Positions 26,207 through 44,072 of a stretch of DNA of 64,000 bases are shown here, piece by piece. The number at the start of each line of letters is the position of its first letter. The stretch's first letter is position 1. A program made the translations under genes and the position numbers. Below the pieces are notes generated by a model. That model was given only the letters and a program-made list of their open reading frames with translations, was not told where the DNA came from and did no database searches. Source of the stretch: an uncultured Eubacteriales bacterium (GTDB lineage Bacteria; Bacillota; Clostridia; Christensenellales; CAG-1252); NCBI GenBank assembly GCA_902797685.1, contig CADBTQ010000007.1, positions 7,290-71,289 on the forward strand, given 5' to 3'.

Positions 26207-26214
26207 TAAACAGG

Positions 26215-26276: not shown

Positions 26277-26287
26277 GGGGGCGTGCT

Positions 26288-27505: not shown

Positions 27506-27506
27506 A

Positions 27507-27553
27507 ACCCAAACCAAAAACCGCCGACGGGATTTCGTCGGCGGTTTTGGGTT
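27507..27553. terminator. Bidirectional terminator between the convergent Fic and GNAT genes
   Basis: AACCCAAACCAAAAA-CCGCCGAC-gggattt-GTCGGCGG-TTTTGGGTT; the hairpin is flanked by A-rich and T-rich runs. Confidence 0.7.
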
Positions 27554-28007: not shown

Positions 28008-28011
28008 ACCG

Positions 28012-28548: not shown

Positions 28549-28586
28549 GTTGGTTCTCCTTGTCGTCCCAAAGGGACGGATAGTTT

Positions 28587-28713
28587 ATTGCTGACGCAAT
28601 GCGATATATCTGTTGTCACAGATGCGATATATCCGCAGTCTCGGATGCGATATATCTGTTGTCACAGATGCGATATATTGCTAACGCAATGCGATATATC
28701 TTGCAAGCAAGAT
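28587..28713. repeat. Hairpin array B-left: 5 x GCGATATAT linkers alternating with 12-14 nt hairpins (period 21-23 bp)
   Basis: GCGATATAT occurs at 28601, 28624, 28647, 28670 and 28691. The hairpins are ATTGC-tgac-GCAAT, ATCTGT-tgtc-ACAGAT (twice), ATCCG-cagtct-CGGAT, ATTGC-taac-GCAAT and ATCTTGC-aa-GCAAGAT. Confidence 0.85.
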
Positions 28714-28743
28714 GTAGTGGGTCGCTTTGCTCCGAAAGATCGG

Positions 28744-29103
28744 TCAGTTTTCGCCGTTCTTTTTGGCAGTAGTCACGGAAGCGATCAATTTCCTACGTAT
28801 CGTACCGCACTTATTGAACAGCGATTTGTAACGATCGGGCGATAGCGCGCCGGTCTTGTACAATATCTCCAACCAATACTCCGTTTCGTAGCACTCCTTA
28901 AGCGCGATTTCCATTTTGTTGATAAAATCGGCGCGACTTTGTGCATAAAACCCTTCGTGTGCGTTGGCGCCGATGGAAGAACAGGCGCGAAGCAGTTGGT
29001 TGACGAAGATAGCCTTCCCTTGGATGTGTTCACAAAGCATTGTCAACTCCACCGTCAAATCAACCGCCAACTCTTTGATCGTTTTGTCTTGAGTCATCGC
29101 CAT
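28744..29103 (-). CDS. Four-helix-bundle protein (23S rRNA intervening-sequence protein / Avd family)
   Basis: 119 aa: ..VNQLLRACSSIGANAHEGFYAQSRADFINKMEIALKECYETEYWLEILYK.. matches the remembered family pattern (QLxRAxxSIxANIxEG...DFxxKxxIAxKExxETxYWLxLL). The start was placed at MAMTQDK. The 183-aa ORF-track version runs into the right hairpin array. Confidence 0.78.
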   Translation of the reverse strand: MAMTQDKTIKELAVDLTVELTMLCEHIQGKAIFVNQLLRACSSIGANAHEGFYAQSRADFINKMEIALKECYETEYWLEILYKTGALSPDRYKSLFNKCGTIRRKLIASVTTAKKNGEN

Positions 29104-29121
29104 CTTTCCATTATCCACAGC

Positions 29122-29228
29122 ATCTCCCTTAGGAGATATATCGCGCCGAAGGTATATCGCACGCAAAGCGTATCTCGCAAATCCGCTCTGCGGATTTATC
29201 TCGCCGCAAGCGTGCTCTGCACGCTTGC
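29122..29228. repeat. Hairpin array B-right: AT(A/C)TCGC linkers (reverse complement of the B-left linker) alternating with hairpins
   Basis: The linker occurs at 29138, 29154, 29172 and 29198. The hairpins are ATCTCC-ctt-AGGAGAT, ACGC-aaa-GCGT, AAATCCGC-tct-GCGGATTT and GCAAGCGTGC-tct-GCACGCTTGC. The last abuts the proS stop codon. Confidence 0.8.
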
Positions 29229-30680
29229 TTAATACGCTTTGGCGAAGTAGATCAATTTCCCTTTTCCGTTTAGGGGCTTGCCGCAGCAAACGCATTTGTC
29301 CCCGATGGGGGTTTGGTCAAAGGGCATACAGCGGGAACTCGCGGCGGTCAACTCTTTGATCTTGTCCTCGCAGGCGCGCTCGCCGCACCACATGGTACGC
29401 GCGAAGTGGCCGCTATCCACGGCGGCTTTGAGTTCGTCCACGTTGGCGACGTCCACGATATGGCTATCGCGGAAAGCGGTCGCCTTGACGAGCATATGGC
29501 GTTGCACGTCGTCAAGCAACTTGGCGATCTCGTCCGCCAACCCGTCCAAAGACAAGGTGTCTTTGCCGAAAGTGTCGCGGCGGGAGACCACGCACACGTT
29601 ATTTTCGATGTCGCGGGGACCGATCTCCACTCTGAGGGGCACGCCCTTCATCTCCCACTCGTTGAACTTCCAACCCGGAGATTGATCGCGATCGTCCAAT
29701 TCGACGCGGATGCCCGCCCCTTTGAGCAAAGCGGTCAACTCTTGCGCCTTTTCCAGCACGCCCGCCTTGTGCATCGCCACGGGGACGATCACCACTTGGA
29801 TGGGCGCGACCTTGGGGGGAAGCGCCAAACCGCGTTGGTCGCCGTGCGCCATTACCAGTGCGCCGATCAAACGGGTAGACACGCCCCAGCTGGATTGGTA
29901 GGGGTATTTGAGGGTGTTGTCCTTGTCAAGGTATTTGATATCGAACGCCTTGGCAAAGTTTTGTCCCAAGTTGTGCGAAGTGCCGCTTTGCAAGCTCTTG
30001 CCGTCCAACATCATCGCCTCGATGGTGTAGGTGGCGTCCGCACCCGCAAACTTTTCCTTATCCGTTTTGCGACCGGTCAGCATGGGGATAGCGAGCACGT
30101 TTTCGGCAAACTCGCGATACACCTCGAGCATTTGCAAGGTCTCTTCTTGCGCCTCTTCGGGGGTGCGGTGGGCGGTGTGACCCTCTTGCCACAAAAACTC
30201 GCTCGTCCTAAGGAAGGGGCGGGTGGTCTTTTCCCAACGTACCACGTTGGCCCATTGGTTGATCTTGACGGGGAGATCTCTCCACGACTGGATCCACTTG
30301 GCGTACATGGTGCCGATGATGGTCTCGCTGGTGGGGCGCACCACCAATTTTTCGGGCAACTCCTCGTTCCCGACGTGGGTCACCAAGGCGACTTCGGGCG
30401 CAAACCCTTCCACGTGCTCCGCCTCTTTGGTGAGGAAGCTGTACGGGATAAAGAGGGGGAAGTATGCGTTTTGATGTCCGGTCGCTTTGAAGCGAGCGTC
30501 CAATTCGTGCTGAATATTCTCCCACACGGCGTAACCGTAGGGACGGATGACCATCGTGCCCTTGACGGGGCCGTAGTCCACCATGCCCGTCTTAAGGACG
30601 ACGTCGGTGTACCATTGGGGGAAGTCCGCCTGCATGTCGGCGATCTCTTTGACAAAGGATTGTTCTTTTTTGTCTGCCAT
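29229..30680 (-). CDS. proS: Proline--tRNA ligase (archaeal/eukaryote-like short form)
   Basis: 483 aa: ..FPQWYTDVVLKTGMVDYGPVKGTMVIRPYGYAVWE.., ending ..YFAKAY. The start was placed at MADKKEQ behind AAGGAG. Confidence 0.92.
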   Translation of the reverse strand: MADKKEQSFVKEIADMQADFPQWYTDVVLKTGMVDYGPVKGTMVIRPYGYAVWENIQHELDARFKATGHQNAYFPLFIPYSFLTKEAEHVEGFAPEVALVTHVGNEELPEKLVVRPTSETIIGTMYAKWIQSWRDLPVKINQWANVVRWEKTTRPFLRTSEFLWQEGHTAHRTPEEAQEETLQMLEVYREFAENVLAIPMLTGRKTDKEKFAGADATYTIEAMMLDGKSLQSGTSHNLGQNFAKAFDIKYLDKDNTLKYPYQSSWGVSTRLIGALVMAHGDQRGLALPPKVAPIQVVIVPVAMHKAGVLEKAQELTALLKGAGIRVELDDRDQSPGWKFNEWEMKGVPLRVEIGPRDIENNVCVVSRRDTFGKDTLSLDGLADEIAKLLDDVQRHMLVKATAFRDSHIVDVANVDELKAAVDSGHFARTMWCGERACEDKIKELTAASSRCMPFDQTPIGDKCVCCGKPLNGKGKLIYFAKAY

Positions 30681-30823
30681 AGTCAACTCCTTGTTGTTTG
30701 CGTTTATTGCGTACTCATTATACACGCCCGCGCCCAAAAAGTAAATAAATTATCTTTGTTTTTGTGGTATATCCTCGCAAAGTGTTGTATAATGGGGTTA
30801 CGATAGTTCGCAAGGAGAACAAT

Positions 30824-32125
30824 ATGCAAGATTACGACAAGCAAGTAGTGGACACTTTGTCCGATCTCATCCATTTCAATACGGTCGAAGCCCCCGCGGC
30901 GGGGGAGGGCGCCCCCTTCGGTTTGGGCGTCAAAGCGGCTTTGGATTATACCCTCCGCCTGTTGGAGAGTTGGGGCTTTCGCACCCGCAACTTAGACGGC
31001 TATTGCGGTTGGGCGGAAGTCGGCGAAGGCGACCTCTTCGGGGTGCTGTGCCACTTGGATACCGTGCCTTTGGGCGAGGGATGGCGTTACGATCCTTTGT
31101 CCGCCACCATCGCGGACGGCAAACTGTACGGCAGAGGCTCCCAAGACGACAAAGGACCTTTCGTCGCCAGCCTGTACGCGCTCAAAGAGTTGTTGGACGA
31201 GGGCAAGATTCCCTCTAAGCGCGTCCGCTTTATCTTCGGTTGCAACGAGGAGACGGGTTGGCAATGTATGGACCGCTACCTCGCCACCGAGGAGCATCCC
31301 GTGATGGCGATCAGCCCCGACGGCGATTTCCCCGTCATCAACTGCGAAAAGGGGTTGGGACACTTCGAATTGGTGTTCGACCGCCCCGAGTGGTTGCTCG
31401 ATCTCAACGCGGGCTACCGCGTCAACATGGTGCCCGATAAGGCGTATGCCCGCGTCAAGGGCATCGGCGACAGATTGGGCGACGCCCCCTCGCACGGCGT
31501 AGACGTGGAGTGGGACGGGGACGAGTGCGTTTTGAGAGCCAGTGGCAAATCGGCGCACGGCTCCACCCCGTGGTTGGGCGAAAACGCCCTTCTCAAGATC
31601 CTGTCCGTATTGGTGGGCGTGGACGAGGTCGCGACCGCTTTGGGCAAGGGCTTGTCCCGCACCAACGGCTCGGCGGCGGGCGTGGGCTTCCACGACGACC
31701 AGTCGGGGGACTTGTCCCTCAACGCCGGTTACGCCAGATTGGAAGACGGCTGCCTCAAAGTGGGTTTGGATATCCGTTTCCCCATTTCCTTCTCGCACGA
31801 GATGGTCACGCACGGCTTGGAGAGCGCTTTCCCCATGGCGAAAGTCGTGCTCAAACACGCCCATCCCAGCTTGTACCTCGCGCCCGATCATCCCCTGGTG
31901 TCCGCCCTCTTGGATTCGTACGCCGAAGTGATGGGAGAGCGTCCCGCCCCCTTGTGCATCGGCGGCGCGACCTATGCGCGCGCCCTTCCCAACGCGGTGG
32001 CGTTCGGTCCCGTCTTCCCGGGGGACGAGGAGATGTGTCACCAAGTGGACGAGTACGTCCGACTGGATCGCTTGGTGCAAATGCGCCGCATTTACAAAGT
32101 GGCGTTTGAAAAGATCTGTTTTTAG
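30824..32125 (+). CDS. M20-family dipeptidase (PepV/Sapep-like)
   Basis: ..CHLDTVPLGEGWRYDPLSATIADGKLYGRGSQDDKGP..; start at MQDYDKQ behind AAGGAG. Confidence 0.8.
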   Translation: MQDYDKQVVDTLSDLIHFNTVEAPAAGEGAPFGLGVKAALDYTLRLLESWGFRTRNLDGYCGWAEVGEGDLFGVLCHLDTVPLGEGWRYDPLSATIADGKLYGRGSQDDKGPFVASLYALKELLDEGKIPSKRVRFIFGCNEETGWQCMDRYLATEEHPVMAISPDGDFPVINCEKGLGHFELVFDRPEWLLDLNAGYRVNMVPDKAYARVKGIGDRLGDAPSHGVDVEWDGDECVLRASGKSAHGSTPWLGENALLKILSVLVGVDEVATALGKGLSRTNGSAAGVGFHDDQSGDLSLNAGYARLEDGCLKVGLDIRFPISFSHEMVTHGLESAFPMAKVVLKHAHPSLYLAPDHPLVSALLDSYAEVMGERPAPLCIGGATYARALPNAVAFGPVFPGDEEMCHQVDEYVRLDRLVQMRRIYKVAFEKICF

Positions 32126-32228
32126 GCGATCGCGCCGAAATCGACAAACATTGAATTATTGGGGGACGTTAGACGACTAACGCCCCTTTTTTTGATCGGA
32201 ATGATGGCTAACTTGTCCCGTTTGTCGC

Positions 32229-32972
32229 TTACACCAACACCGCCACGATCGATAGGCAAAAGGTGTAGATACCGAAGATCAGGTAGCTTTGCCCAAAGGC
32301 TTTGAGCATCAGGCGCAAGCCGACGAGCCCCGATACGAAAGCGGACAAGGTCGCGGCGGCGAGGGTGATGGGAGACAGCCCCGCCAAAGACACCCCTTTG
32401 ACGATCTCCAGCCCGAGCCCGCCCACGATGACGGGAATGGACGCCAAAAAGGACAACGTCACCGCCCTCTCTTGGGGGATGCCCGCTATGCGCATGGCGG
32501 TCACGGTGGCGCCCGAACGGCTTAGCCCCGGCAGCACCGCGATCCCGTGTACCGCGCCCACCCACAAGGCGTTGGGGACGGAGAGTTTTTTGTCCCCTTT
32601 GGGCAGGGTGCGCGCGAAAAGCAACAGCACCGACGTACCCAAAAATCCCAACGGTAGCCACGCCCCCTCCACCAAGGAGGGCGCCCATTTGGTCAGCGCA
32701 AAAGCGACCCCCGCCGTGGGCAAGCACAGAAGAGCGAGCCACCACGTCCCTGCTCTCACGGGGTGCCGTATGCACGCCCATATCTCCCGCCTCATCACGA
32801 TCCCCACCGCTACGAGGGTGGCAAGGTGAAGCAACAGGTTGAGAAAAACCGAGGGCGGCGCCACCCCCATTCGCTCCAAAAGAAGCAAGTGTCCGCTACT
32901 GGATACGGGCAAAAACTCGGTCAGCCCTTGGGTCAGTCCCAACAGCAATCCCTTCAACAAGTCCAACCACAT
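32229..32972 (-). CDS. uppP: Undecaprenyl-diphosphate phosphatase
   Basis: MWLDLLKGLLLGLTQGLTEFLPVSSSGHLLL...; 247 aa, multi-TM. Confidence 0.9.
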   Translation of the reverse strand: MWLDLLKGLLLGLTQGLTEFLPVSSSGHLLLLERMGVAPPSVFLNLLLHLATLVAVGIVMRREIWACIRHPVRAGTWWLALLCLPTAGVAFALTKWAPSLVEGAWLPLGFLGTSVLLLFARTLPKGDKKLSVPNALWVGAVHGIAVLPGLSRSGATVTAMRIAGIPQERAVTLSFLASIPVIVGGLGLEIVKGVSLAGLSPITLAAATLSAFVSGLVGLRLMLKAFGQSYLIFGIYTFCLSIVAVLV

Positions 32973-33108
32973 ACAAAACCCCCGTCAAAAGATTGAAAAA
33001 ACGCCGCGCTTGGTGTATAATAGTAGTCCGAGACAAATGCGCAAGCATTTGCTATACGACAAAATACAGTATGTGGCAGCCCCTTGGGGTATGCTCAAAG
33101 GACGAGAT

Positions 33109-34200
33109 ATGAAATTAGGTGTGGTAGGACTGCCCAACGTGGGCAAATCGACGTTGTTTAACGCCATTACGCAAGCGGGTGCCGAGTGCGCCAACTATCC
33201 CTTTTGCACGATAGAGCCCAACGTGGGCGTGGTCGCCGTGCCCGACCATCGCCTCGCCAAATTGGCGGCGTTGTACGACAGCCAAAAGGTGACCCCCGCG
33301 GTGTTGGAGTTTGTGGACATCGCCGGGCTCGTCAAGGGGGCGAGCCAAGGGGAAGGCTTGGGCAACAAGTTCCTCTCCCACATCCGCGAAGTGGACGCCA
33401 TCGTGCACGTGGTGCGCTGTTTTGACGACGGCAACATCACCCACGTGGACGGCAAAGTGGATCCCGTGTCCGACGTGGAGACCATCGACTACGAGTTGAT
33501 CTTTGCGGACATGGACACGGTGGCTCGCCGCGTCGCCCGCATCAAAAACGCCGCCAAGAGCGGGGACAAAAAATTGCTCGTCGAGTTGGAAGCGGTGGAA
33601 AAGATCGCCTCGCTGTTGGAGCAAGGCCGTCCCGTGCGGGATATGGGCTTGACCCCCGAGGAGTACGCCTTCGTCGCCGACTTGTTTTTGCTGACCGCCA
33701 AACCCGTGATCTACGTCGCCAACATCGGCGAAAACGACATCGGCAAAGAGGACAACGCCCACGTGTCGGCGCTTAAAGCCATCGCCCGAAAAGAGGGCGC
33801 CGAGGTGATCGTATTGTGCGCCAAGGTGGAAGAGGAATTGGCGGCTCTGAGTCCCGAAGACCACGCCATGTTCGCCGAGGAATACGGCATCAAGGAGAGC
33901 GGTTTGGATCTTTTGATCAAGGTGGGTTACAAGACGCTCGGCTTGATCTCTTTCCTCACCGCGGGCGAAAAGGAGACCCGCGCTTGGACTATCACCCAGG
34001 GCACCAAAGCCCCCCAAGCCGCGGGCAAGATCCACACCGATTTCGAAAAGGGCTTTATCCGCGCCGAGATCGTCAACTGGCAAGACCTGTTGGATTGCGG
34101 CTCCCTCAACGTCGCCAAGGAGAGGGGATTGTTGCGCAGCGAAGGCAAGGAATACGTGATGAAAGACGGAGACGTGGTGTTGTTCCGCTTTAACGTGTAG
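33109..34200 (+). CDS. ychF: Redox-regulated ATPase YchF
   Basis: [21 protein letters not shown]...; 363 aa. The longer ORF-track start at 32839 overlaps uppP and is rejected. Confidence 0.92.
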
Positions 34201-34208
34201 GAGGAGAT

Positions 34209-35888
34209 ATGGACTACAAGAGAGAGATCGCCAAACTATTTGCCCCTCACCTCACCGAGGAGGAGGCGTACAGCCTGCTCGTGCCCCCCAAGGATATCGC
34301 CATGGGGGATATTTGCTTGCCCTGTTTTCGCTTGGCAAAGACCATGCGTATGTCTCCCGTCGCTATCGCCGACAAGTTGGCGGCGGAATTGACCTTGCCC
34401 CCCTTCGTCGCCGAAGTCAAATCGGTAGCGGGCTACCTCAATTTCAAGTTCAGTTCGCACGACTTCGCCTCCACCGTGTTGGGCAACGTGTTGTCCCAAG
34501 GGGCGGTTTACGGCAAGTCGGACTTGGGCGCAGGCAAGACCGTGTGCATCGATTATAGCTCCATCAATATCGCCAAACCCTTCCATATCGGGCATTTGTC
34601 CACCACCGTGTTGGGCGCGGCGCTCTACCGGCTGTATAAGGAGTTGGGCTACAACGTCGTGGGCATCAATCACCTGGGGGATTGGGGCACCCAATTCGGC
34701 AAGTTGATAGTCGCCTATCACAAGTGGTCGTCCAAAGAGGAGATCGAGCGTGGCGGCGTGCGCAAGTTGGTGGAGATCTACGTCAAGTTCCACCAAGAGG
34801 CGGAAGACCATCCCGAGTTGGACGAGGAAGCGCGCTCTTGGTTCAAAAAGTTGGAAGACGGGGACGAGGAAGCGGTGTCTTTGTGGAAGTGGTTCAAGGA
34901 GATCACCCTCGCGGACGACGTGCCCATTTACGACCGCTTGGGGGTGCATTTCGACTCTTACGCGGGCGAAAGCTTTTACAACGACAAGATGGACGCCGTG
35001 GTGGACGAGTTGGCTGCCAAGGGGTTGCTGACCCTCTCGGACGGGGCGCAGATCGTGGAACTGGACGGCATGCCCCCCTGCATCATCCGCAAGTCGGACG
35101 GGGCGACTCTGTACGCCACCCGCGATTTGGCGGCGGCGTTTTACCGCAAGTCCACCTACGACTTCGCCAAGTGTCTGTACGTGGTGGCGTATCAACAAAA
35201 CCTCCACTTCAAGCAATGGTTCGAGGTGGTACACAAGATGGGCTACGAGTGGTACAAGGACTTGGAGCACGTGGCGTTCGGTATGGTGAGTTTGGAGGAC
35301 GGCGCCATGAGCACCCGCAAGGGCAACGCCGTGTGGCTGACGGACGTACTGGATAAGGCGGTGGAGAAAGCCGCCGAGATCATCAAGCAAAAGTCCCCCG
35401 ACCTCGACGATCCCAACGAAGTCGCCGAGATGGTGGGCGTGGGTAGCGTCATCTTTTCGGCACTCATCAACAACCGTATCAAGGACATCGAGTTCCGCTA
35501 CGACAAGATCCTCAATTTCGACGGGGAGACCTGCCCCTACGTGCAATACACCCACGCCCGCTGTGCGTCTTTGCTCGCCAAAGCGGGGGAGTGGCAAGCG
35601 CCCCGAGATTACGGCGCCCTCTCGGACGACGTCGCCAAGGACATCCTGCGCAATTTGGAGAGGTACCCCTCTCTGCTCAGGGAAGCCGCCGACAAAAACG
35701 AGCCGAGCATGATCACCCGCCACGTGGTGGATCTGTGCAAGTTGTACAACAAGTTCTACTTTGACAACAAGATCCTCACCGCTCCCGACGGCGTGCGCGA
35801 AGCCCGCTTGGCGTTGACTTTAGCGGTCAAGACGGTGATGGAAAACGGCATGGCGATCATCGGCATCCGCTTGCCGGACAAGATGTAG
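34209..35888 (+). CDS. argS: Arginine--tRNA ligase
   Basis: 559 aa: ..SSINIAKPFHIGHLSTTVLG.. (HIGH) and ..MSTRKG.. (KMSK-like). Confidence 0.93.
   Translation: MDYKREIAKLFAPHLTEEEAYSLLVPPKDIAMGDICLPCFRLAKTMRMSPVAIADKLAAELTLPPFVAEVKSVAGYLNFKFSSHDFASTVLGNVLSQGAVYGKSDLGAGKTVCIDYSSINIAKPFHIGHLSTTVLGAALYRLYKELGYNVVGINHLGDWGTQFGKLIVAYHKWSSKEEIERGGVRKLVEIYVKFHQEAEDHPELDEEARSWFKKLEDGDEEAVSLWKWFKEITLADDVPIYDRLGVHFDSYAGESFYNDKMDAVVDELAAKGLLTLSDGAQIVELDGMPPCIIRKSDGATLYATRDLAAAFYRKSTYDFAKCLYVVAYQQNLHFKQWFEVVHKMGYEWYKDLEHVAFGMVSLEDGAMSTRKGNAVWLTDVLDKAVEKAAEIIKQKSPDLDDPNEVAEMVGVGSVIFSALINNRIKDIEFRYDKILNFDGETCPYVQYTHARCASLLAKAGEWQAPRDYGALSDDVAKDILRNLERYPSLLREAADKNEPSMITRHVVDLCKLYNKFYFDNKILTAPDGVREARLALTLAVKTVMENGMAIIGIRLPDKM
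35829..35888 (+). repeat. Left copy of a perfect 60-bp direct repeat (last 60 nt of argS including the stop)
   Basis: AAGACGGTGATGGAAAACGGCATGGCGATCATCGGCATCCGCTTGCCGGACAAGATGTAG is identical to 37444-37503. Confidence 0.95.
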
Positions 35889-35985
35889 AATTCATAGCTA
35901 TTCGTCTTGGTGTGGGTCATATTATAGATATATTGTGCTATAATATGCAGTCATGGGCGTGGTTTTCACCGACATATTATTATCA

Positions 35986-36032
35986 ATAGAGAGCAACGCG
36001 GGCAGTTTTAATCTGCCCGCGTTGCTCTCTAT
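35986..36032. terminator. Perfect 20-bp-stem hairpin between argS and the convergent XRE gene
   Basis: ATAGAGAGCAACGCGGGCAG-ttttaat-CTGCCCGCGTTGCTCTCTAT. The right arm contains the XRE stop codon. Confidence 0.65.
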
Positions 36033-36250
36033 TTGATATTTATGGTTAAACCCAAAAAGTAATCTGCCGAAATGCCATACACCAATGACATTCTTCGTAG
36101 AATATCATATCCAGGTTTTGCTTTCCCATGCAGCCATTCGCTTACTTGGCTTTGCTTTACGCCTATCGTCTGTGCGAACGCGCTTTGAGATAGATTTTTT
36201 TCAATTAAAAAATCTTCTAGTATTTCACTAAACGTAACCTCTGTCTCCAT
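36029..36250 (-). CDS. XRE-family helix-turn-helix regulator (73 aa)
   Basis: ..LSQSAFAQTIGVKQSQVSEWLHGKAKPGYDILRRMSLVYGISADYFLG.. is a classic HTH_3-type sequence. Confidence 0.85.
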   Translation of the reverse strand: METEVTFSEILEDFLIEKNLSQSAFAQTIGVKQSQVSEWLHGKAKPGYDILRRMSLVYGISADYFLGLTINIK

Positions 36251-36261
36251 ATGGTCATTAT

Positions 36262-36313
36262 ATAGAATATTCTATTAGCGCGTCTTGACATATAGAATAT
36301 TCTATTATATAAT
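36262..36313. promoter_or_regulatory. Two copies of the 14-bp perfect palindrome ATAGAATATTCTAT; the second fills the spacer of a consensus TTGACA-N17-TATAAT promoter
   Basis: Palindromes at 36262-36275 and 36292-36305. TTGACA at 36285-36290 and TATAAT at 36308-36313, facing the + strand gene at 36341. Confidence 0.7.
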
Positions 36314-36340
36314 TTTAGCAACGAGTGACTGAGGTGGACT

Positions 36341-37435
36341 ATGGACGAAAATGATCAAGTTGAACTAAGAACGCAAGATGCAAATTCTTTTTTTTCTTCG
36401 TTACCTTTATATCATAGATCAAAGATTCTTAACCAGTATGTAGAGGAGGACAAGGAATATAGAAAAAAGTTGAGTGTAGGAATGCTTTCTCTCCTTCTCG
36501 CCGGCGGGGTAATTCTTGGGGGCGTATCAATTATTACATGGTGTTTTGACGAGGTTATAGGTTTCTCGATATTTATTGCTTTTTTGGTATTTGAGCTTGT
36601 TATGACCATAATTATTGGATTGGTCTGGCATAATGCAATTAAAAAAGGAGTCATGAGCAAAAGGAAACGTTCTTTAATGACGGAATCGGAGTTATGTGCC
36701 GATTATCTTGATAATCATCATCATGAAGTGATAATTCTTCAAAAGCGATATGCCGATATGATGGAAAACCATTTCTCCCCATCAAGTGTTTATTTGTTGC
36801 CAAACAAATATGAATTATATCTTGATAATGTAGCAAAGAGGTTTTGTCTCTTCCAATCATACAATGCAAAGTATTACGACTATAAGGACATAATAGGATA
36901 TGAGGTTTATCAAAACGAACAAGAAATGTCTTACCAAAGTGGGAATAGCGGGAAAGCCCTTCTGGGTGGTCTTGTTCTTGGTGTACCGGGCGCTATTGCA
37001 GGTGCCGCTGGATCTAGGCATATTAAACTTGAAAAAACGATAACCAATTTATCTTTGATTATTAAAGTTAATGATCCCTTAGAACCTATTATTCGGATTG
37101 TCTATCTTAATTCAAATCAACCATCACCCCCTGTTGTTGAAGGAACAGAACGACATAGTTCACTGCAACATAGCATACAAGAAATTTGCGCAGTGATTGA
37201 AATAATGAAATCACAAGCAAATAAGCCTCATACGAACCCAAATACAAAATCACCTATACCCGATGCCACCAATAATACTACAGTAGTCGCAAGGTTGCCA
37301 AGACAGCACATTATTAATAATGAAACTGATATAAAATCACGATTAACGGAATTGAAAGACTGGCACGATGAAGGACTAATTTCCGACGATGACTACGAAG
37401 AACTAAAAAAACAAGCACTATCTAAGTTGCGGTAA
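36341..37435 (+). CDS. Membrane protein with two TM helices, a glycine-zipper segment and a C-terminal SHOCT domain (364 aa)
   Basis: TM helices LSVGMLSLLLAGGVILGGVSIITW and FSIFIAFLVFELVMTIIIGLVW. Glycine zipper GKALLGGLVLGVPGAIAGAAGS. C-terminus RLTELKDWHDEGLISDDDYEELKKQALSKL (SHOCT pattern). Confidence 0.75.
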   Translation: MDENDQVELRTQDANSFFSSLPLYHRSKILNQYVEEDKEYRKKLSVGMLSLLLAGGVILGGVSIITWCFDEVIGFSIFIAFLVFELVMTIIIGLVWHNAIKKGVMSKRKRSLMTESELCADYLDNHHHEVIILQKRYADMMENHFSPSSVYLLPNKYELYLDNVAKRFCLFQSYNAKYYDYKDIIGYEVYQNEQEMSYQSGNSGKALLGGLVLGVPGAIAGAAGSRHIKLEKTITNLSLIIKVNDPLEPIIRIVYLNSNQPSPPVVEGTERHSSLQHSIQEICAVIEIMKSQANKPHTNPNTKSPIPDATNNTTVVARLPRQHIINNETDIKSRLTELKDWHDEGLISDDDYEELKKQALSKLR

Positions 37436-37443
37436 TATTAGAT

Positions 37444-37503
37444 AAGACGGTGATGGAAAACGGCATGGCGATCATCGGCATCCGCTTGCCGGACAAGATG
37501 TAG
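37444..37503 (+). repeat. Right copy of the 60-bp direct repeat (orphan argS 3' fragment)
   Basis: Identical to 35829-35888. Confidence 0.95.
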
Positions 37504-37655
37504 TAACGCCAAAGCGAAATGATGTTTCGCCTAATGGCGAAGTGATGTATGCGCCAAGCGCAAATGATGTTATTGGCTTGCGCCAAAAGTGATGTTTTCT
37601 TTGCAAATTGCAAAGAAAGTGATGGAAGCCGCACAGCGTGCGGCTTTTTTGATGG
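37504..37655. repeat. Hairpin array C with recurring RTGATGK motif
   Basis: ATGATGT at 37519, GTGATGT at 37542, ATGATGT at 37564, GTGATGT at 37589, GTGATGG at 37619 and TTGATGG at 37649. Interleaved with GCGAA/TTCGC, GGCG/CGCC and GCGCAA/TTGCGC stems and the 21-bp palindrome TTCTTTGCAA-a-TTGCAAAGAA. Confidence 0.7.
37628..37650 (+). terminator. Rho-independent terminator, probably the native argS terminator
   Basis: GCCGCAC-agc-GTGCGGC followed by TTTTTT. Confidence 0.7.
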
Positions 37656-37806
37656 GATTTTCCTTGATTCGTTAGTTGAAGGGGTGACCATGACGGCGAA
37701 CGCATTTTTCGGTCGGCGGCGAAAACTTTTTGTGTTTCCGCTTGAAAACCCGCTTTCCGTTGTGTTACTATTAAAAGAAAAGGGTGCTTTCTTATTATAT
37801 AGAACG

Positions 37807-39855
37807 ATGACCGATCAAGAGTTTTGGGCGCAATACGGACAGGGGCTCAACGCCAAGCAGCGTGCCGCCGTGAGTCAGATCACGGGGGCGGATCTTTTGT
37901 TGGCTGTCCCCGGCAGCGGCAAAACCACCGTGCTCGTCCACCGCGTGGGCTACATGGTGTTGGTCGGTGGGGTCGAGCCCGAGCATATCCTCACCATGAC
38001 CTACACGGTCGCCGCCACCGACGATATGCGGGAGCGGTGCGCCGCTATCTTTGGGCACGAGTTGGCGGATAGGGTCAACTTCGGCACCATCAACGCGGTG
38101 GCTTTGGAGGTGATCCGCTATTTCGGTGAGGTCACGGGACGGGAAGCGCCGCCACTGTATCCCGACGAGAGGTTGGTGGGCGGTATCGTCGCGGGACTAC
38201 TGCGTAGGCAGGGCAACTATTTTCCCACCGAGTACGATTTGAGGCTCGCTCGCACCGCCATCACTTACGTCAAAAACCAAATGCTCAACCACGGGGAATA
38301 CCGCACGGTCGAGGCGGGGGAGATCGACGTGGAAGCCTTGATGGACGGCTACGAGGAAGCCATGCGAGAGGCGGGTTGGATGGACTTCGACGACCAGTTG
38401 GTGTACGCTCACCGCATTTTGTCCCACTATCCCGCCGTACAGGCGTATTTTGCCGCCAAATACACCCATATCTTGGTGGACGAGGCGCAGGACACGTCCA
38501 AAATACAGCACGCCATCATTCGCCTGCTTGCGGGGGACAAGCCCAACCTGTTTATGGTGGGGGACGAGGACCAAAGTATTTACGGTTTCCGCGCGGCGTA
38601 CCCCGAGGCGTTGATGGACTTTACCAAAGACTACGAGGGCGCCACCGTGGCGTACCTCGACCAAAACTACCGCTCCACCCAAGGGATCGTGGAGATCGCC
38701 CAGCGGTTCGTGGGCAAAAACGTCAATCGCCGTCCCAAACGCATGGTCGCCGTGCGCGACGTGGCGGGCGGGGTAGAGAGGGTGCAACTGGGCACGCGGT
38801 CGGATCAATACGACTACCTCGTCAAGGTCGCCGCCGCCGTCCCACGCGATACCGCCGTGCTGTATCGGGACAACGAGTGCGCCATTCCCTTGATCCAACG
38901 GCTGTTTAAGCAGGATATACCCTTCCGAGGGGTGGGCTTCAATATGGCGTCCTTTTTCGATCACCGCTCGGTGCGGGACGCGTTGGATATTATGGAGTTT
39001 GCCTTCTTCCCGCGGGACAGGGAACGCTTTATGCGCATCTATTCCCGCTTGGGCTGCCGTATCAAGCGCGAGGACGCCGACTACGCCTGCAAGCAAGCCG
39101 CGGGCACGGGTACGCCCATCCTCAACGTGTTGCTTCGCCGTTACAAATCCCAATACGCCAAAGCCGCCGACGTGCTGTCCGCCGTGGACGCTTTGATCGC
39201 CATCTCCAAGTGCGGCACCGCCGAGGACGCCTTGGCGATATTGGTGGAGCATTTTTGCCGCGCGGGCTCCACTTGGCTCAGCCCCAACAAACAGTATATC
39301 CTGTCCTCGCTGTCCGAGGGGACCAACGTCCACCCGATGGCGTTCCGCACCCATCTCAAAAGCTTGGCTGCCAAGATCGACGGGCACGTCAATCCCCCGT
39401 TAGGGATCATCTTGTCCACCGTCCACAGCGCCAAGGGATTGGAGTACGACGACGTGTACTTGATCGACGTGGTCAACGGGGTGTTCAACGCCCGTCAGCG
39501 CCGAGAGGAGCAGGAAGGCGACCCCGAAGAGGACAGGCGGCTGTTTTACGTGGCGATGACCCGCGCCAAAAACCATTTGTACGTTTTGAGCTACCGCGAC
39601 CACTCAAGCGACTATGCGAGCGAGTTGTTCGGCAAAATGCTCGCCCCCAAACCCAAAGCCGACTCCCGCCTCGCCGATTGGTGCGAGACCCACAAGGCGG
39701 GACATTACGTGCGCCACCGCAAGTACGGATTGCTCCGTATCGTCGCGGTAGACCAAGGCGCCGAGGACGCTACCGTGACCTTGGACGTGGCGGGCGCTCC
39801 CAAAAAGTTTTCACTCAAAGCCCTCTTGGACAACAAGATCATCTCGGACGAATAA
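37807..39855 (+). CDS. UvrD/Rep/PcrA-family SF1 DNA helicase (682 aa)
   Basis: Motifs AVPGSGKTTVL, ILVDEAQDTS, FMVGDEDQSIYGFRAA, QNYRST, TVHSAKGLEYDDVY and LFYVAMTRAK. The C-terminal ..GHYVRHRKYGLLRIVAV.. resembles the UvrD/PcrA Tudor-like tail. The start was placed at MTDQEFW (37807), because the 37549 start would read through the hairpin array and terminator. Confidence 0.85.
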   Translation: MTDQEFWAQYGQGLNAKQRAAVSQITGADLLLAVPGSGKTTVLVHRVGYMVLVGGVEPEHILTMTYTVAATDDMRERCAAIFGHELADRVNFGTINAVALEVIRYFGEVTGREAPPLYPDERLVGGIVAGLLRRQGNYFPTEYDLRLARTAITYVKNQMLNHGEYRTVEAGEIDVEALMDGYEEAMREAGWMDFDDQLVYAHRILSHYPAVQAYFAAKYTHILVDEAQDTSKIQHAIIRLLAGDKPNLFMVGDEDQSIYGFRAAYPEALMDFTKDYEGATVAYLDQNYRSTQGIVEIAQRFVGKNVNRRPKRMVAVRDVAGGVERVQLGTRSDQYDYLVKVAAAVPRDTAVLYRDNECAIPLIQRLFKQDIPFRGVGFNMASFFDHRSVRDALDIMEFAFFPRDRERFMRIYSRLGCRIKREDADYACKQAAGTGTPILNVLLRRYKSQYAKAADVLSAVDALIAISKCGTAEDALAILVEHFCRAGSTWLSPNKQYILSSLSEGTNVHPMAFRTHLKSLAAKIDGHVNPPLGIILSTVHSAKGLEYDDVYLIDVVNGVFNARQRREEQEGDPEEDRRLFYVAMTRAKNHLYVLSYRDHSSDYASELFGKMLAPKPKADSRLADWCETHKAGHYVRHRKYGLLRIVAVDQGAEDATVTLDVAGAPKKFSLKALLDNKIISDE

Positions 39856-40012
39856 CTTTCCGCGCCCGGCTTTTTGATATTTTTTGAAAAAAATCCCTTT
39901 TGGGCGGGACAAAACGCCTTGCAAAATCGTCTATCTTTATGAGAGGTGGACTCTCCGTGTTTTGTAACGAATAGCACCGCTGTTGCATTTCCCGCAAACC
40001 TTGCGGAATTAC

Positions 40013-40112
40013 GCCATTGACGGCGCACGTTCCATTGGGTACAATAGAGTAGGATACTATGAACGCAAGCACTTATACCATACCCCCATATAGCGACGAG
40101 TACCTTGCCCAA
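40013..40112 (+). repeat. Promoter+leader repeat R1 (100 bp; 3 mismatches to 41393-41492)
   Basis: Aligned by eye with an offset of exactly 1380 bp. Mismatches at 40031, 40091 and 40094. Confidence 0.9.
40017..40045 (+). promoter_or_regulatory. Near-consensus promoter TTGACG-N17-TACAAT inside R1
   Basis: Hexamers read directly. An ATG lies 13 nt after the -10. Confidence 0.55.
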
Positions 40113-40163
40113 TTTGATTGGATAGAAGCACTTAATCGGCTTTTCTTCGCAGGAAAAATGTAA
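40059..40163 (+). CDS. Possible 34-aa leader peptide, variant 1 (MNASTYTIPPYSDEYLAQ-FDWIEALNRLFFAGKM)
   Basis: Hand-translated. It shares its first 18 codons with 41439..41612. No SD sequence and an almost leaderless position; coding status is uncertain. Confidence 0.25.
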   Translation: MNASTYTIPPYSDEYLAQFDWIEALNRLFFAGKM

Positions 40164-40184
40164 TTCGGAGGGATATATAGAATC

Positions 40185-40526
40185 ATGAGTACTAATCCAA
40201 CAGACAACATGAGATATTGGCTTGTGATCCCCTTTATGGGCTTGTTTGTTGCGCATAGGCGCAGCATGCAATATTTGCAGTACAAACGACGTTATGATAG
40301 CAATATGGCAAAGAAGCAAATACTCAATATGCTTCTATGCGTCCTCACTGGCGTCATTACAATGGTCGGTTTTACGATAGCGATCGCTTTTTTGATACGT
40401 CTTTGGGTAAATGAGCCATTAAAATGGGGAAAGCTTATCGTTATGATCGGATCCCTGATCGGGGGTTGGTGCGCCGGTTTGCCATGTATAGGGTGGCTTG
40501 CCTATATCAAAAAAATGTGTTTGTAA
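40185..40526 (+). CDS. Small membrane protein, unknown function (113 aa)
   Basis: The ORF track protein has about three hydrophobic helices. GGAGGG lies upstream. The region is AT-richer. Confidence 0.55.
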   Translation: MSTNPTDNMRYWLVIPFMGLFVAHRRSMQYLQYKRRYDSNMAKKQILNMLLCVLTGVITMVGFTIAIAFLIRLWVNEPLKWGKLIVMIGSLIGGWCAGLPCIGWLAYIKKMCL

Positions 40527-40616
40527 AAGAGGTGTTATCATGAAGTATATTTTACTTCATTCTTGTCTTATTTATCATATCAGGGGCTCAATCAAATCAA
40601 TTGGGGGTTTTGATAT

Positions 40617-41339
40617 ATGGATAGGCTTTATATGTGGGTAATCTCGTCGGCGGTGGTCGTTTTGTCAAGCATCATTTTTGCGAAGACCAACAAGCGTAAG
40701 CCGCCCGAAGGAGTGGCAAACAAATATCGCGTGAAAGATACCTCGGTATTGCGCAAGTTGTTACATTTCAGGGATACCGAGCAGGAAGTGCACACGTATT
40801 TTACCGTGCTTCCCCCTTATCTCGCATTATTGGTGGCGATAGGTTGCTTGGTGATTTGGGGTGTGGATATGGGGACTAACCATGCTATAGAATCCAAACT
40901 GCCGAAAAGTGCCATCGTGGGGTTTTGGGTGTCATGGATGCTCGTGTGTGTGCTATACTACCTCGTTCTTTTTGTGTGGTGGGATATGGCTCGCACCAAA
41001 ACCCGTTCGACCAATCGCGAAGTGATCAAAATGGGGTTAGCCTTTGCCAAACAGGCAAAAAAAGCGAAAGGGGAGCAAGATGAGCTTTTTTTGGACAACC
41101 TTGTCGAAGGGAAAGATTTTGATTTTGAATGGGAGCGCAACCGCTATTACGTAAGGCATATCGACGGGGAGATGGGCGGTCCTGTGCAACTGTTTCGTCG
41201 GGAAGAAAGGGGCAAAACCTTGCTTGCGACTTACCAATCCCCTGCCGAGTTGTTGGTCGAAGGCGAGATAGGCGGACAGCCAATAGGGGATATTTATACG
41301 CAATGTAACGTTGTGCGGACGTATTCTCGCAAGGAGTAG
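40617..41339 (+). CDS. Membrane protein with a soluble C-terminal domain, unknown function (240 aa)
   Basis: TM segments WVISSAVVVLSSIIF, LPPYLALLVAIGCLVIWGV and IVGFWVSWMLVCVLYYLVLFVWW, followed by a charged soluble C-terminus. Confidence 0.6.
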   Translation: MDRLYMWVISSAVVVLSSIIFAKTNKRKPPEGVANKYRVKDTSVLRKLLHFRDTEQEVHTYFTVLPPYLALLVAIGCLVIWGVDMGTNHAIESKLPKSAIVGFWVSWMLVCVLYYLVLFVWWDMARTKTRSTNREVIKMGLAFAKQAKKAKGEQDELFLDNLVEGKDFDFEWERNRYYVRHIDGEMGGPVQLFRREERGKTLLATYQSPAELLVEGEIGGQPIGDIYTQCNVVRTYSRKE

Positions 41340-41392
41340 TCCAACTGTATATTGATTATACCGCTATTATCCTTTGTAGTTTGCAGGATACT

Positions 41393-41517
41393 GCCATTGA
41401 CGGCGCACGTCCCATTGGGTACAATAGAGTAGGATACTATGAACGCAAGCACTTATACCATACCCCCATACAGTGACGAGTACCTTGCCCAAGTGGCAAG
41501 GGTGGTTGGGGTGGCGC
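41393..41517 (+). repeat. Promoter+leader repeat R2 (left 100 bp = R1; right 59 bp = R3)
   Basis: 41393-41492 matches R1. 41459-41517 matches 44105-44163 with 4 mismatches. Confidence 0.9.
41397..41425 (+). promoter_or_regulatory. Second copy of the TTGACG-N17-TACAAT promoter
   Basis: Same hexamers as in R1. Confidence 0.55.
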
Positions 41518-41612
41518 TATTGTTGCTGTTGCATATGTACCTCAAGCGTGTCCCGTGGTCACATCAGTTGCCTTTTTTGTTGACATATATGAAAAACTAC
41601 GTAAATTGCTAG
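41439..41612 (+). CDS. Possible 57-aa leader peptide, variant 2 (MNASTYTIPPYSDEYLAQ-VARVVGVALLLLLHMYLKRVPWSHQLPFLLTYMKNYVNC)
   Basis: Hand-translated. Hydrophobic middle segment. Below the ORF-track size cut-off. Confidence 0.25.
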   Translation: MNASTYTIPPYSDEYLAQVARVVGVALLLLLHMYLKRVPWSHQLPFLLTYMKNYVNC

Positions 41613-41625
41613 CGGAGGTGTTCGC

Positions 41626-42540
41626 ATGACAATACAATATACACTTGACGATAAAAAACGTAGACGGTTATTCCAACAAATACTGTGGACACATATCAAA
41701 GCAGTGTTCATACTATTTTGCATAGCACTTGTTGTCGGTGTTGTCTGCATCGGCATTGGCTTTGGACTCAATTATCGCAACTTGTGGATAGATGGTCTTG
41801 CTTTTGTCGGGTTGGCATTCCTACTGGCGTGGATCTGCTTGGGCCATTACGCCAATGACAAGCAGTATATCTTGGGAGAGCGCAAAGGGACAAAACAATA
41901 TGAGTTGACTATCGACGAGGGTACCGTTCAACTTCTGGAGATGGACAGTGGGGTACTGGTGCGTTATAACGAAAACGATTTGCGAGTCAAAATCAAAACG
42001 GCTGACGCGATATACTTGGTGTTTGATAGGACGCAGGTGTTGTATTTTCCTCGGTTGTCCGAGATTGAGACCGTTCTACCCGATCCGCCGACTCAATCTG
42101 CCAAGAAGCGGAACAAAAAACAAATCGCTATCCTTCTCATCGCCTTGGTGGTTACATTTGCAATTATCGGTGGTGCTATCGGTTTTCTTGTTGGCGAATC
42201 GATGCAAATGAAACGATATCTGTCGGACGATACCTATCAGCAGCTGGATTGTCGTATCGTGCAGGTCTATGAAGAGTCGGGAAAACTCTGTGTCACGGTA
42301 GACATTCTCAGCGAGGGTCAAGACTTGCAACCCATTGACGGAGCCTATCGATTTGCATTTGTATCCGAAGGTGCTCGGTCGGCGGGTCTCGAAACGGGAG
42401 ACGTCGTTACTATCAAAACCACACCAAAGCGAGGCAAAGTATTGAATGCCTATTTGGCGGCATATCTTGTCAAGAATGATGTGATATACGTGGACTTCGA
42501 GACAGGCAAACACGACGTATGGCTGTGGCAAATGCAATAA
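41626..42540 (+). CDS. Membrane protein, 2 TM + soluble domain + TM + soluble domain (YcxB/bPH-like architecture?) (304 aa)
   Basis: RBS GGAGG. TM helices AVFILFCIALVVGVVCIGIGFGL and GLAFVGLAFLLAWICLG, followed by ..YELTIDEGTVQLLE..IYLVFDRTQVLYFPR... The family call is from memory only. Confidence 0.55.
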   Translation: MTIQYTLDDKKRRRLFQQILWTHIKAVFILFCIALVVGVVCIGIGFGLNYRNLWIDGLAFVGLAFLLAWICLGHYANDKQYILGERKGTKQYELTIDEGTVQLLEMDSGVLVRYNENDLRVKIKTADAIYLVFDRTQVLYFPRLSEIETVLPDPPTQSAKKRNKKQIAILLIALVVTFAIIGGAIGFLVGESMQMKRYLSDDTYQQLDCRIVQVYEESGKLCVTVDILSEGQDLQPIDGAYRFAFVSEGARSAGLETGDVVTIKTTPKRGKVLNAYLAAYLVKNDVIYVDFETGKHDVWLWQMQ

Positions 42541-42594
42541 TGTTCGTCAAGTCAACAAGCTGACGGAGTGGTGCTTTACTAGGAGTGATTGCTG

Positions 42595-43101
42595 ATGGAT
42601 AAAGTGGGGAGAATAAGAATGAACAAGCCAATATCTATAATCAAATCGGGGGATAAAGTAAACATAGAACTATTCGGGTCTACTGCCCCCGCGAATCTGA
42701 TCAATATAATGTCGCTCTTCTCATTTGAGTACCTCTTCGGCGAATTCTTTTCCGATCGGGACATCCCCAATGGCTATTGGGGGGATCATGAAAGACTGGT
42801 TAAACAATACATTGATTATAATAGACGAGGACACAAGATCATTAGAGTATGCGTGCCTCGTAGTGCGCTATCCCTTTTTATTAACTTGACGGATGCGCTG
42901 CAAACGACTATAAGCGGAACTATCGGCGAAGCGACTGACTGGGATGAATATCTTAATACTCATCAGGTGTGTGGTTCTCCCCTTACTTTTGTTTGGAATG
43001 ACAATTACAGTTCGTGCATAACTTTTGATCGCAAGCTCTATTCGCCTCAAAAGTTGATAACGGAAATACAATCCTTGCATTGGATAGAAGAAAACGTTTA
43101 A
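42595..43101 (+). CDS. Soluble protein of unknown function (168 aa)
   Basis: ORF track 42589..43101. The ATG at 42595 sits 9 nt after AGGAG. No motif recognised. Confidence 0.55.
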   Translation: MDKVGRIRMNKPISIIKSGDKVNIELFGSTAPANLINIMSLFSFEYLFGEFFSDRDIPNGYWGDHERLVKQYIDYNRRGHKIIRVCVPRSALSLFINLTDALQTTISGTIGEATDWDEYLNTHQVCGSPLTFVWNDNYSSCITFDRKLYSPQKLITEIQSLHWIEENV

Positions 43102-43107
43102 GATCGT

Positions 43108-44052
43108 ATGATTAGATTCAAAGGGATATTATCGGAAGAATGTCGTAAAGAGCGATCGCTTCGGGTTTATAAGAATCTTTTGGTCATGGGCTGGTTTGGC
43201 GTCGTCTTTATGACGGCAACAGGCGTGATCCTATGTGTGCTCAAACACACGTGGTACCCTATTATATTATCTTTGATCGGGGTCATCGGTTTGATTGGTG
43301 TGTACATAACAAAAAATAAGAATTCCGCACGTGTATATACGGTTATCGAGATCGACAATGAGTTTATCAGCGTTTTGGCGTTAGGGACGACGCGTCGCCC
43401 CGTTTCCGACGTCGATAGGGTTATCGACAGAGGCGGTTGGTATTATATCCTTTTCAAAAGAGGAGATTATACTAATAGCGTCACATGTGAGAAGAGTCTA
43501 ATAGTTGATGGGACGCTTCAGGAGTTTGAAAGCATATTTTTGGGAAAGGTCGTTACCGAAACCGATCCAAAAACTCAACCTTTAACACCCGAAGCCATAG
43601 CAAAAGAATTGTTCTTTGACAATAACGGAAATATCGAGCGCATGAAAAACAACGGATCGTTTGAGAGAATCCAACAATGTCATATCGACGATAACACGAT
43701 TCGCTTATGGAAGCAGGAGATAAAACTGAACTTACACCGCGTGATCTCGCACTGCAAAGGAAGCACGCGTGTCCATAATGTCGAAGACTACTTGTTGTTG
43801 GCGAACGAAGAAGAAAGAAGAACTCTATTGGCTCAACTCATCATCGACAAACAGATCGATAGTTTTTCACGGCTGCGCTTTTGCGAAATGGCTAAATGCT
43901 ACGTTACAGAGGATGTGTCCTTTTTGCAACTGCTCGAACAGGGGAAGGATATGATCGAGCGGGATCCATATAATATCGATATGTCGTTTTACAAAGAGTA
44001 TCCTAACACTGACTTGAGAGAGCAAACAAAACATCGCGTTAGCTTGCTATAA
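43108..44052 (+). CDS. Membrane protein, 2 TM + soluble domains (YcxB/bPH-like N-terminal architecture?) (314 aa)
   Basis: TM helices LLVMGWFGVVFMTATGVILCVL and PIILSLIGVIGLIGVYI, followed by ..YTVIEIDNEFISVLA..WYYILFKRGDY.. Confidence 0.55.
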   Translation: MIRFKGILSEECRKERSLRVYKNLLVMGWFGVVFMTATGVILCVLKHTWYPIILSLIGVIGLIGVYITKNKNSARVYTVIEIDNEFISVLALGTTRRPVSDVDRVIDRGGWYYILFKRGDYTNSVTCEKSLIVDGTLQEFESIFLGKVVTETDPKTQPLTPEAIAKELFFDNNGNIERMKNNGSFERIQQCHIDDNTIRLWKQEIKLNLHRVISHCKGSTRVHNVEDYLLLANEEERRTLLAQLIIDKQIDSFSRLRFCEMAKCYVTEDVSFLQLLEQGKDMIERDPYNIDMSFYKEYPNTDLREQTKHRVSLL

Positions 44053-44072
44053 GCTCGTAAACCGTACGTCAA

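Follow-up and report, generated by a model that had tools for sequence, protein, structure and literature searches.

A small recombinase-less element bounded by a duplicated argS 3' end in an uncultured Eubacteriales bacterium

The argS locus and its duplicated 3' end

The locus described here lies in a 64,000-nt stretch of contig CADBTQ010000007.1 (the window; assembly GCA_902797685.1) of an uncultured Eubacteriales bacterium, where the 3' end of the arginyl-tRNA synthetase gene argS is followed by an AT-rich insertion enclosed by two copies of the last 60 nt of the gene. The target gene itself (34209-35888, plus strand) is intact and encodes a protein of 559 aa in which all three ArgRS Pfam domains are present (tRNA-synt_1d at 2e-93, DALR_1 and Arg_tRNA_synt_N). 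The left repeat copy (35829-35888, plus strand), referred to as attL by analogy with attachment (att) sites, corresponds to the final 19 codons of argS plus the TAG stop codon, while the right copy (attR, 37444-37503, plus strand) starts 8 nt past the stop codon of the membrane-protein gene of the insert and is a non-coding spare. The two copies form a direct repeat identical at 60/60 positions, exactly as a first-pass annotation, made from the letters alone, had described the duplicated gene end. The identity has sharp edges on both sides with zero extension, flanks of 30-80 nt being no closer to each other than shuffled sequence, and none of the 12-mers of the 60-nt block occurs elsewhere in the window. 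The first base of the block falls on an argS codon boundary and its last bases are the TAG stop; its guanine-plus-cytosine (GC) content of 55% is host-like, and the longest inverted repeat inside it measures 5 nt. Despite the insertion, the C-terminus of ArgS stays intact and conserved: the peptide encoded by the last 19 codons is the same in two other loci (L085 and L113) and differs by one residue in a third (L111), and in a relative with a 90%-identical ArgS the 60-mer differs at 6/60 positions, all of them wobble positions. No tRNA gene was found in the window. The attL junction consists of GCGGTC, the 60-mer and AATTCATAGC, and the attR junction of TATTAGAT, the 60-mer and TAACGCCAAAG; the corresponding empty site (attB) joins GCGGTC, the 60-mer and TAACGCCAAAG, and the attP junction of the expected circle would join TATTAGAT, the 60-mer and AATTCATAGC.

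The DNA between the repeats measures 1,555 bp and has a GC content of 36.6% versus 55.6% in the 10 kb to its left and 57.6% at 37504-39900, the host chromosome being at about 57%, which bears out the AT-richness noticed at first reading. This is also illustrated by the GC content at third codon positions, 0.30-0.35 in the two open reading frames (ORFs) of the insert versus 0.76-0.83 in argS and the neighbouring genes. The insert is made up of two intact genes, one hairpin and a 96-nt spacer, with nothing else left over. No k-mer of at least 8 nt is common to its two ends in direct or inverted orientation, and neither terminal inverted repeats nor arm-type repeats were detected in them.

The spacer, or left arm of the insert (35889-35984), is non-coding on direct reading of the sequence and has 35% GC. 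The hairpin that follows it (35985-36033), whose arms of 24 nt show 96% complementarity, has a folding energy of -44.4 kcal/mol and a z score of -10.5, and was scored as terminator-like; the terminator that the first-pass annotation had drawn with a 20-bp stem is therefore present, with arms somewhat longer than described. No known RNA family reached threshold in the insert. Located 97 nt past the argS stop, this strong hairpin would be supplied by the element in place of the native terminator (37626-37655), from which argS is now separated, and it is likely a bidirectional terminator serving both the displaced argS transcript and the repressor gene of the insert. The ancestral downstream region of argS (37504-37655, plus strand) now lies beyond attR. 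It is composed of five ARTGATGKW motifs alternating with short variable palindromes (37507-37626), followed by the native terminator hairpin; five of the seven matches to the motif in the whole window cluster in this region (fold z -2.9). As a side observation, the left arm contains an extended -10-like motif, TGCTATAAT, at 35936-35944, and about 8 nt past it begins a 27-codon ORF (MGVVFTDILLSIESNAGSFNLPALLSI, 35953-36036) that reads through the large hairpin. Any role for this pair is speculative; it could be a leaderless micro-ORF, specify a short RNA, or be nothing.

Contigs from the same and from sister species, reached via the cluster members of near-identical ArgS proteins, reveal the state of the site before the insertion. 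One of them (L113; ENA ERZ27292096, 113.8 kb) matches the window at 97.8-98.8% identity over positions 24256-35887 and 37703-39965 and is hence conspecific. It holds a single 60-mer, identical at 59/60 positions and ending in a TAA stop, and has neither the repressor gene nor the membrane-protein gene. In a sister species (L111, about 82% identity), one copy of the 60-mer and no insert are likewise found: argS is followed by a hairpin array, a terminator, further hairpin repeats and the helicase gene, and the sequence after the argS stop is collinear with that after attR in the window, through 'GGAAGCCGC...GCGGCTT...GATGG'. From the comparison of these two contigs, the ancestral order is therefore argS stop, hairpin array, terminator and helicase. 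The empty site foreseen in the first-pass annotation thus exists in both. The window strain gained 1,555 + 60 nt, and the insertion is recent and strain-specific. L108-L110 carry neither the duplication nor the cargo, and the insert is also lacking in relatives at about 76% ArgS identity. Such a clean pair of a filled and a conspecific empty site documents how a strain gained genes at the 3' end of an essential housekeeping gene, the host being an uncultured rumen bacterium that resembles Christensenellales.

Immediately after its argS stop (positions 11681-13166), L113 carries an unrelated filler of 1.48 kb, which comprises a hairpin array resembling miniature inverted-repeat transposable elements (MITEs), an ORF of 236 aa predicted to be membrane-anchored and of unknown family, and another half array. 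Because a different filler occupies the same spot in this strain, the spacer between argS and the helicase gene is a strain-variable hotspot. Among GTDB representatives, whose ArgS proteins share at most 60% amino-acid identity with that of the window and are too distant to inform on the site, the 3'-end duplication was found in 0/80 argS loci and the cargo was absent there too; the idea that argS is a general insertion hotspot was rejected on this count.

The repressor, its operators and the membrane protein

The first gene of the insert (36029-36250, minus strand) encodes a 73-aa repressor of the XRE/Cro-CI type with a helix-turn-helix (HTH) domain (HTH_3 at 5e-12; phrog_8, transcriptional regulator, at 6e-15), in line with the XRE gene recognized at first reading. 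It has 795 homologues in Clostridia, those among the matches listed being 67-78% identical. Upstream of it lies a divergent control region (36260-36313) with two operators, O1 (36260-36277) and O2 (36290-36307), and a promoter (36285-36313). Both operators are 18-nt copies, each with the perfect 14-nt palindrome ATAGAATATTCTAT, placed within 90 nt of control DNA. The promoter, TTGACA-17-TATAAT, agrees with the consensus at 12/12 positions and faces the membrane-protein gene, with O2 inside its spacer, so that the divergent consensus promoter and palindromic operators reported earlier were recovered. On the minus strand, TATAAT is followed after 6 nt by the ATG of the repressor gene, and the other operator lies within the spacer of that promoter. 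This arrangement suggests that the XRE protein is a leaderless, autoregulated repressor. According to the layout, the protein would bind the two palindromic operators in the spacers of its own and of the divergent promoter, and would thereby repress the membrane protein.

The predicted operator assignment is supported by the conservation of the layout in an unrelated contig of about 41% GC (L114, 5155-7864), which encodes a 76%-identical XRE protein with the same operator pair. In its control region, TTGACAT again lies between the exact ATAGAATATTCTAT palindrome and a one-off variant of it, and the start codon stands in the same context. The divergent operon there is a different one, with a 62-aa ORF, a Band_7-like ORF of 414 aa and others, and it adjoins rpsR-ssb-rpsF; no flanking repeats were found at the XRE locus of L114. 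Judging from these two layouts, the repressor and its operators appear to form a transferable switching unit that can control membrane cargo of different kinds.

The second gene (36341-37435, plus strand) encodes a 364-aa membrane protein assigned to PF27000 (PH_gly_zipper, precomputed hits) and to phrog_888 (2e-13), a family of unknown function. Its parts are two transmembrane helices (about aa 44-98, also seen in the hydropathy profile), a PH-like beta domain into which a glycine-zipper hairpin is inserted (aa 203-225), a disordered linker and a C-terminal SHOCT domain. The AlphaFold model of the protein has a predicted confidence (pLDDT) of 80, and its top fold matches are uncharacterised siphovirus SHOCT proteins. 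The SHOCT assignment made in the first-pass annotation holds at the level of the family, since all 29/29 aligned homologues match the domain (best E-value 2.6e-11), while the match of the protein itself stays below threshold (19.6 bits against a Pfam cut-off of 27). At E<1e-3 the protein has 668 homologues, and those among the matches listed are 24-42% identical over the aligned stretches.

These relatives lead to phages. In IMG/VR, a recombinase lies directly downstream in 11/22 loci with distant homologues of the membrane protein (10 large serine recombinases and one tyrosine recombinase), several of these loci have a divergent XRE gene of 74 aa upstream, and the phage-host boundary comes after the integrase. 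The similarity of the cargo to phage proteins is about 20-30%. Gene order and family membership thus point to a temperate-phage lysogeny module as the origin of the cargo, and the cassette resembles the integrase-proximal end of such a module, with attR in the position of the integrase. The XRE family of the insert was found nowhere in the XRE-based scans of IMG/VR, and PADLOC returned only generic HTH matches for the repressor and none for the membrane protein. The membrane protein probably has an accessory function of the phage type, e.g., exclusion or abortive infection; a protein of PH, glycine-zipper and SHOCT parts under predicted tight repression is a reasonable candidate for phage exclusion.

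Origin of the insertion

We assign a probability of about 0.55 to the reading in which the insert is a small non-autonomous element, integrated site-specifically and now similar to a cis-mobilisable element (CIME), either decayed or dependent on functions acting in trans. In this scheme, the AT-rich 1,555-bp cassette would have been acquired from low-GC Clostridia or from the phage gene pool and would have entered by recombination within the final 60 nt of argS. The incoming DNA would have brought its own 60 nt, with the result that argS was rebuilt at attL and a spare, non-functional copy was left at attR. A regenerated gene end is what integrase-borne att sites classically leave behind (PMC5704250). 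We infer tyrosine-type site-specific recombination solely from this duplication, the most likely chemistry being that a tyrosine integrase recombined attB with an attP core of 60 nt. This enzyme would either have been lost, as in a decayed prophage or island, or would always have been supplied by another element; present mobility would be expected only if an integrase recognising the att sites acts on attL and attR, in trans or after accretion. Of all readings, the two that the first-pass annotation had set side by side, a decayed island and a minimal element moved in trans, still come first.

The absence of a recombinase, stated at first for the insert, extends beyond it. No ORF for an integrase, excisionase or transposase is present in the insert, none of the tested ORFs of the window matched a recombinase, no Pfam recombinase domain was present in the low-GC blocks at 40-44 kb and 48-53 kb, and phmmer searches with four phage recombinases gave no match in the window, in L113 or in L111.

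A number of observations weigh against a site-specifically integrated element. The 60-mer is host-specific and host-like in GC, with the rest of the element 20 GC points lower; therefore, the att copy was either acquired in this species, during an earlier residence, or made in situ. The cargo stop codon is followed by attR after a mere 8 nt, and arm-type or terminal repeats are lacking. The decay route needs two clean deletions that left no pseudogene debris. Large serine integrases, which are the main type beside the phage relatives of the cargo, give no identities of 60 nt. The first-pass annotation had also proposed to look for other copies of the insert and for versions with an integrase, and this search came out negative in the phage, plasmid and JGI collections: blastn of the whole insert against phage and plasmid records gave zero matches, and a scan of JGI metagenomes returned no relative of the element. 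Besides, a wobble-degenerate pattern of 14 codons of the att site was absent from IMG/VR and from the JGI metagenomes. No close homologue of the cargo protein was found beyond a truncated copy in one contig (L003), the only close match of the membrane protein among 5.8 billion proteins. Finally, the junction between unique argS sequence and the insert, on the attL side, is present only in the contig of the window itself.

Rather than debris, the element could be a functional miniature integrative cassette that spreads within the species without a recombinase of its own, which we consider rather unlikely. Its movement would take place through a resident integrase acting in trans, or through RecA-mediated Campbell insertion after transduction or transformation. 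The XRE/operator module of L114, with its different membrane cargo, would fit a family of such modular cassettes. If this were true, the miniature cassette would be the analogue of MITEs in the world of integrases.

A Campbell insertion independent of any recombinase is a doubtful explanation. Circular or concatemeric foreign DNA that had captured the argS end would have entered by a single RecA crossover, duplicating the homology; the 60 nt could have been captured, e.g., when such DNA excised aberrantly from a position just behind the argS stop. This would be consistent with a repeat that is exactly host sequence, host-like in GC and ending precisely at the stop codon, with the different insertion carried by L113 at the same position after the argS stop, and with the lack of a recombinase and of arm-type sites. 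A widespread attP would also be expected to turn up in viral or metagenomic contigs, from which the att pattern is absent. However, 60 nt is short for RecA and such events are rare, the scheme requires a prior capture step of which there is no trace, and the regeneration of a gene end is, as said, the classical signature of integrase att sites (PMC5704250).

Another possibility is that no att site was ever carried and that the duplication was made in situ, as a long target-site duplication produced by cleavage staggered over 60 nt, or by break repair or template switching, with subsequent fill-in. We regard this as improbable. The two copies are identical to each other and match the conspecific empty site at 59/60 positions, the composition of the block resembles that of the host, unlike that of the remainder of the element, and the similarity ends at the block edges, all of which speaks for a copy made on the spot. 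Yet known prokaryotic target-site duplications measure about 2-15 bp, no transposase, terminal inverted repeats or other transposon ends were detected, and the block runs exactly from a codon boundary to the stop codon, a coincidence that staggered cuts at random positions would not be expected to produce. Moreover, the element occurs as a single copy, with no second target for comparison.

It is quite improbable that the junctions are an artefact of assembly, in which an excised circle or a larger element sharing the 60-mer would have been threaded into an empty chromosome at the graph node formed by the 60-nt repeat, or DNA from some low-GC organism joined to it chimerically. The sequence stems from a metagenome assembly, and two contigs give some substance to this suspicion. 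One (L001) is 100% identical over 35834-38216 and starts 55 nt inside attL, as would a k = 55 graph break at the repeat. The other (L003) is 100% identical to 35928-37189 and offers an alternative join, continuing from 37190 into DNA of 31.6% GC that carries an ABC substrate-binding lipoprotein gene. On the other hand, L001 independently assembles the attR junction, so that the passage from the insert through the 60-mer into the native downstream DNA and the helicase gene exists in two contigs, and a 60-nt repeat is shorter than typical reads and can be resolved by them. The window path yields a full-length membrane protein whose C-terminus aligns with its family, whereas in L003 (divergent part 1-882) the protein is cut at residue 285 to give a product of 287 aa; a further contig (L004), 100% identical over the interior (36000-37240), follows the window path past the L003 breakpoint. 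Even if the assembly were wrong, there must be a molecule that joins the argS end of this species to the cassette. As for L003, a chimera or a rearranged variant is the probable explanation; the contig was considered as another setting of the cassette, in the genome of some low-GC organism, and was not relied upon, as the gene is truncated and the contig possibly chimeric.

An ancient, fixed rearrangement or duplication native to the lineage has nothing in its favour beyond the existence of the repeat and can be set aside, as the duplication is absent from the conspecific at about 98% identity (L113), from L111 and from all other relatives examined, whereas the first-pass annotation would have taken this view had all relatives been duplicated with host-like composition, and as the repeat is still perfect and the composition of the insert has not shifted toward that of the host.

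Known element classes and neighbouring variable DNA

The element reading is in line with what has been described elsewhere under several names. CIMEs are elements that have lost their integration and transfer genes and kept attL and attR; 235 of them are catalogued in ICEberg 2.0, and CIME19258 and CIME302 at the 3' end of fda in Streptococcus thermophilus are examples (PMC6323972, PMC5704250). The argS element shares with them the position at the 3' end of a housekeeping gene, the att direct repeats that regenerate this gene, the lack of integration and transfer genes, and the accessory cargo. Its flanks are a perfect 60-nt repeat, at a site that is empty in the conspecific, and recognition of this repeat by an integrase is putative, as is the mobilisation in cis that CIMEs undergo once an incoming element accretes at one att site; no gene for integration, excision or conjugation stands beside the XRE and membrane-protein ORFs. 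However, it is far smaller (1.6 kb, two genes), no homology to integrative and conjugative elements (ICEs) or integrative and mobilisable elements (IMEs) was detected, and the relatives of its cargo belong to prophage lysogeny modules; no cognate ICE, IME or integrase is known for the 60-mer site of argS. Decay from an ICE or IME has left no sign either: the insert has no room for a relaxase, a type IV secretion system or a remnant of an integrase, and matched no DNA in the plasmid and phage collections.

Pseudo-SCC elements, which resemble the staphylococcal cassette chromosome (SCC) without its ccr genes and reside at orfX (PMC6243372), are likewise devoid of a recombinase, use an att site at a gene 3' end (orfX/rlmH) with direct repeats, and rely on the recombinases of a related element (PMC6243372). 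They differ from the argS element in host clade, target gene and cargo. The repeats of SCC are also about 15-18 bp long and used by the serine recombinases Ccr, as compared with 60 nt at argS.

With cryptic or remnant prophages the element has in common an XRE repressor and a membrane accessory protein that both belong to phage families (phrog_8 and phrog_888), and the order of XRE, membrane protein, integrase and phage end recurs in IMG/VR contigs. This lysogeny-module arrangement is met at a distant protein similarity of about 20-30%, and the XRE family of the element was not found in IMG/VR. In contrast to a prophage, the insert holds no structural, replication or integrase genes of phages, nor pseudogenes of them, and no residual phage gene fragments were found in it, since two intact genes, the hairpin and the spacer account for all of it.

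Integration and excision without an element-encoded recombinase are also known from units moved in trans and from integrative mobile elements exploiting Xer (IMEX). IMEX elements use the host XerCD at dif. The argS repeat, on the other hand, is a coding gene end and contains no dif-like 28-bp XerC/XerD site (the dif consensus having been compared by eye), and no partner island has been identified. The CR2-sul2 unit is reported to be moved in trans by the GIsul2 integrase (PMC9376610). The insert is also unlike a transposon or insertion sequence, having no transposase ORF, no shared end k-mers of at least 8 nt and a 60-nt duplication. Neither a cognate integrase nor arm-type sites of a tyrosine-integrase element were found; the regenerated gene end fits the tyrosine-integrase family, and the element may work alike without being an autonomous member of it.

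Overall, the argS element belongs, as a very small member, to a kind of non-autonomous genomic island that was known before, and a specialist would not be surprised by it. It indicates that recombinase-less mini-islands flanked by att sites exist beyond the well-studied streptococci and staphylococci, and it adds argS to the possible integration targets; no published report of argS as such a target was found, in a literature search confounded by the abbreviation 'ARGs'. Should it prove mobile, few known integrative units would be as small, and it would provide a handle on trans-acting integrases in gut anaerobes. If a remnant, it would represent ordinary genome decay. The locus is a candidate for testing trans-mobilisation.

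The remainder of the window contains other variable DNA. MITE-like elements of about 250 nt occur at 11038-11293, 48175-48393 and 52958-53194, with a variant at 37507-37626, and further copies lie in L113 (11700-11900 and 13050-13170) and in L111 (8130-8530). In each of them, short hairpins linked by ATGATAT(A) make up a forward array, which a central segment separates from an inverted array with TATATCAT as its linker; in the copy at 53 kb, the forward half passes the Rfam gathering score for the Gut-1 RNA (RF01706, 53.8 bits). In the relatives, such copies occupy the spacer between argS and the helicase gene, and in the window they flank a low-GC block at 48.5-52.9 kb.

Window positions 39900-44200 harbour plus-strand ORFs of low GC (41-49%) that gave no match to Pfam, PADLOC or recombinases. 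These ORFs are divided by imperfect direct repeats (40001-40112 and 41381-41492 at 93%; 41459-41518 and 44105-44164 at 93%), in which a promoter-like TTGACG-17-TACAAT occurs together with the 5' portion of the coding sequence of a small gene, and the gene content between the repeats differs from that of L113. The region looks like tandem cassettes that each re-create a gene start. Lastly, downstream of a TetR gene, at 48517-52901, lie two large low-GC ORFs (233 aa and 1,223 aa) with no Pfam match, bracketed by two of the Gut-1/MITE-like copies.

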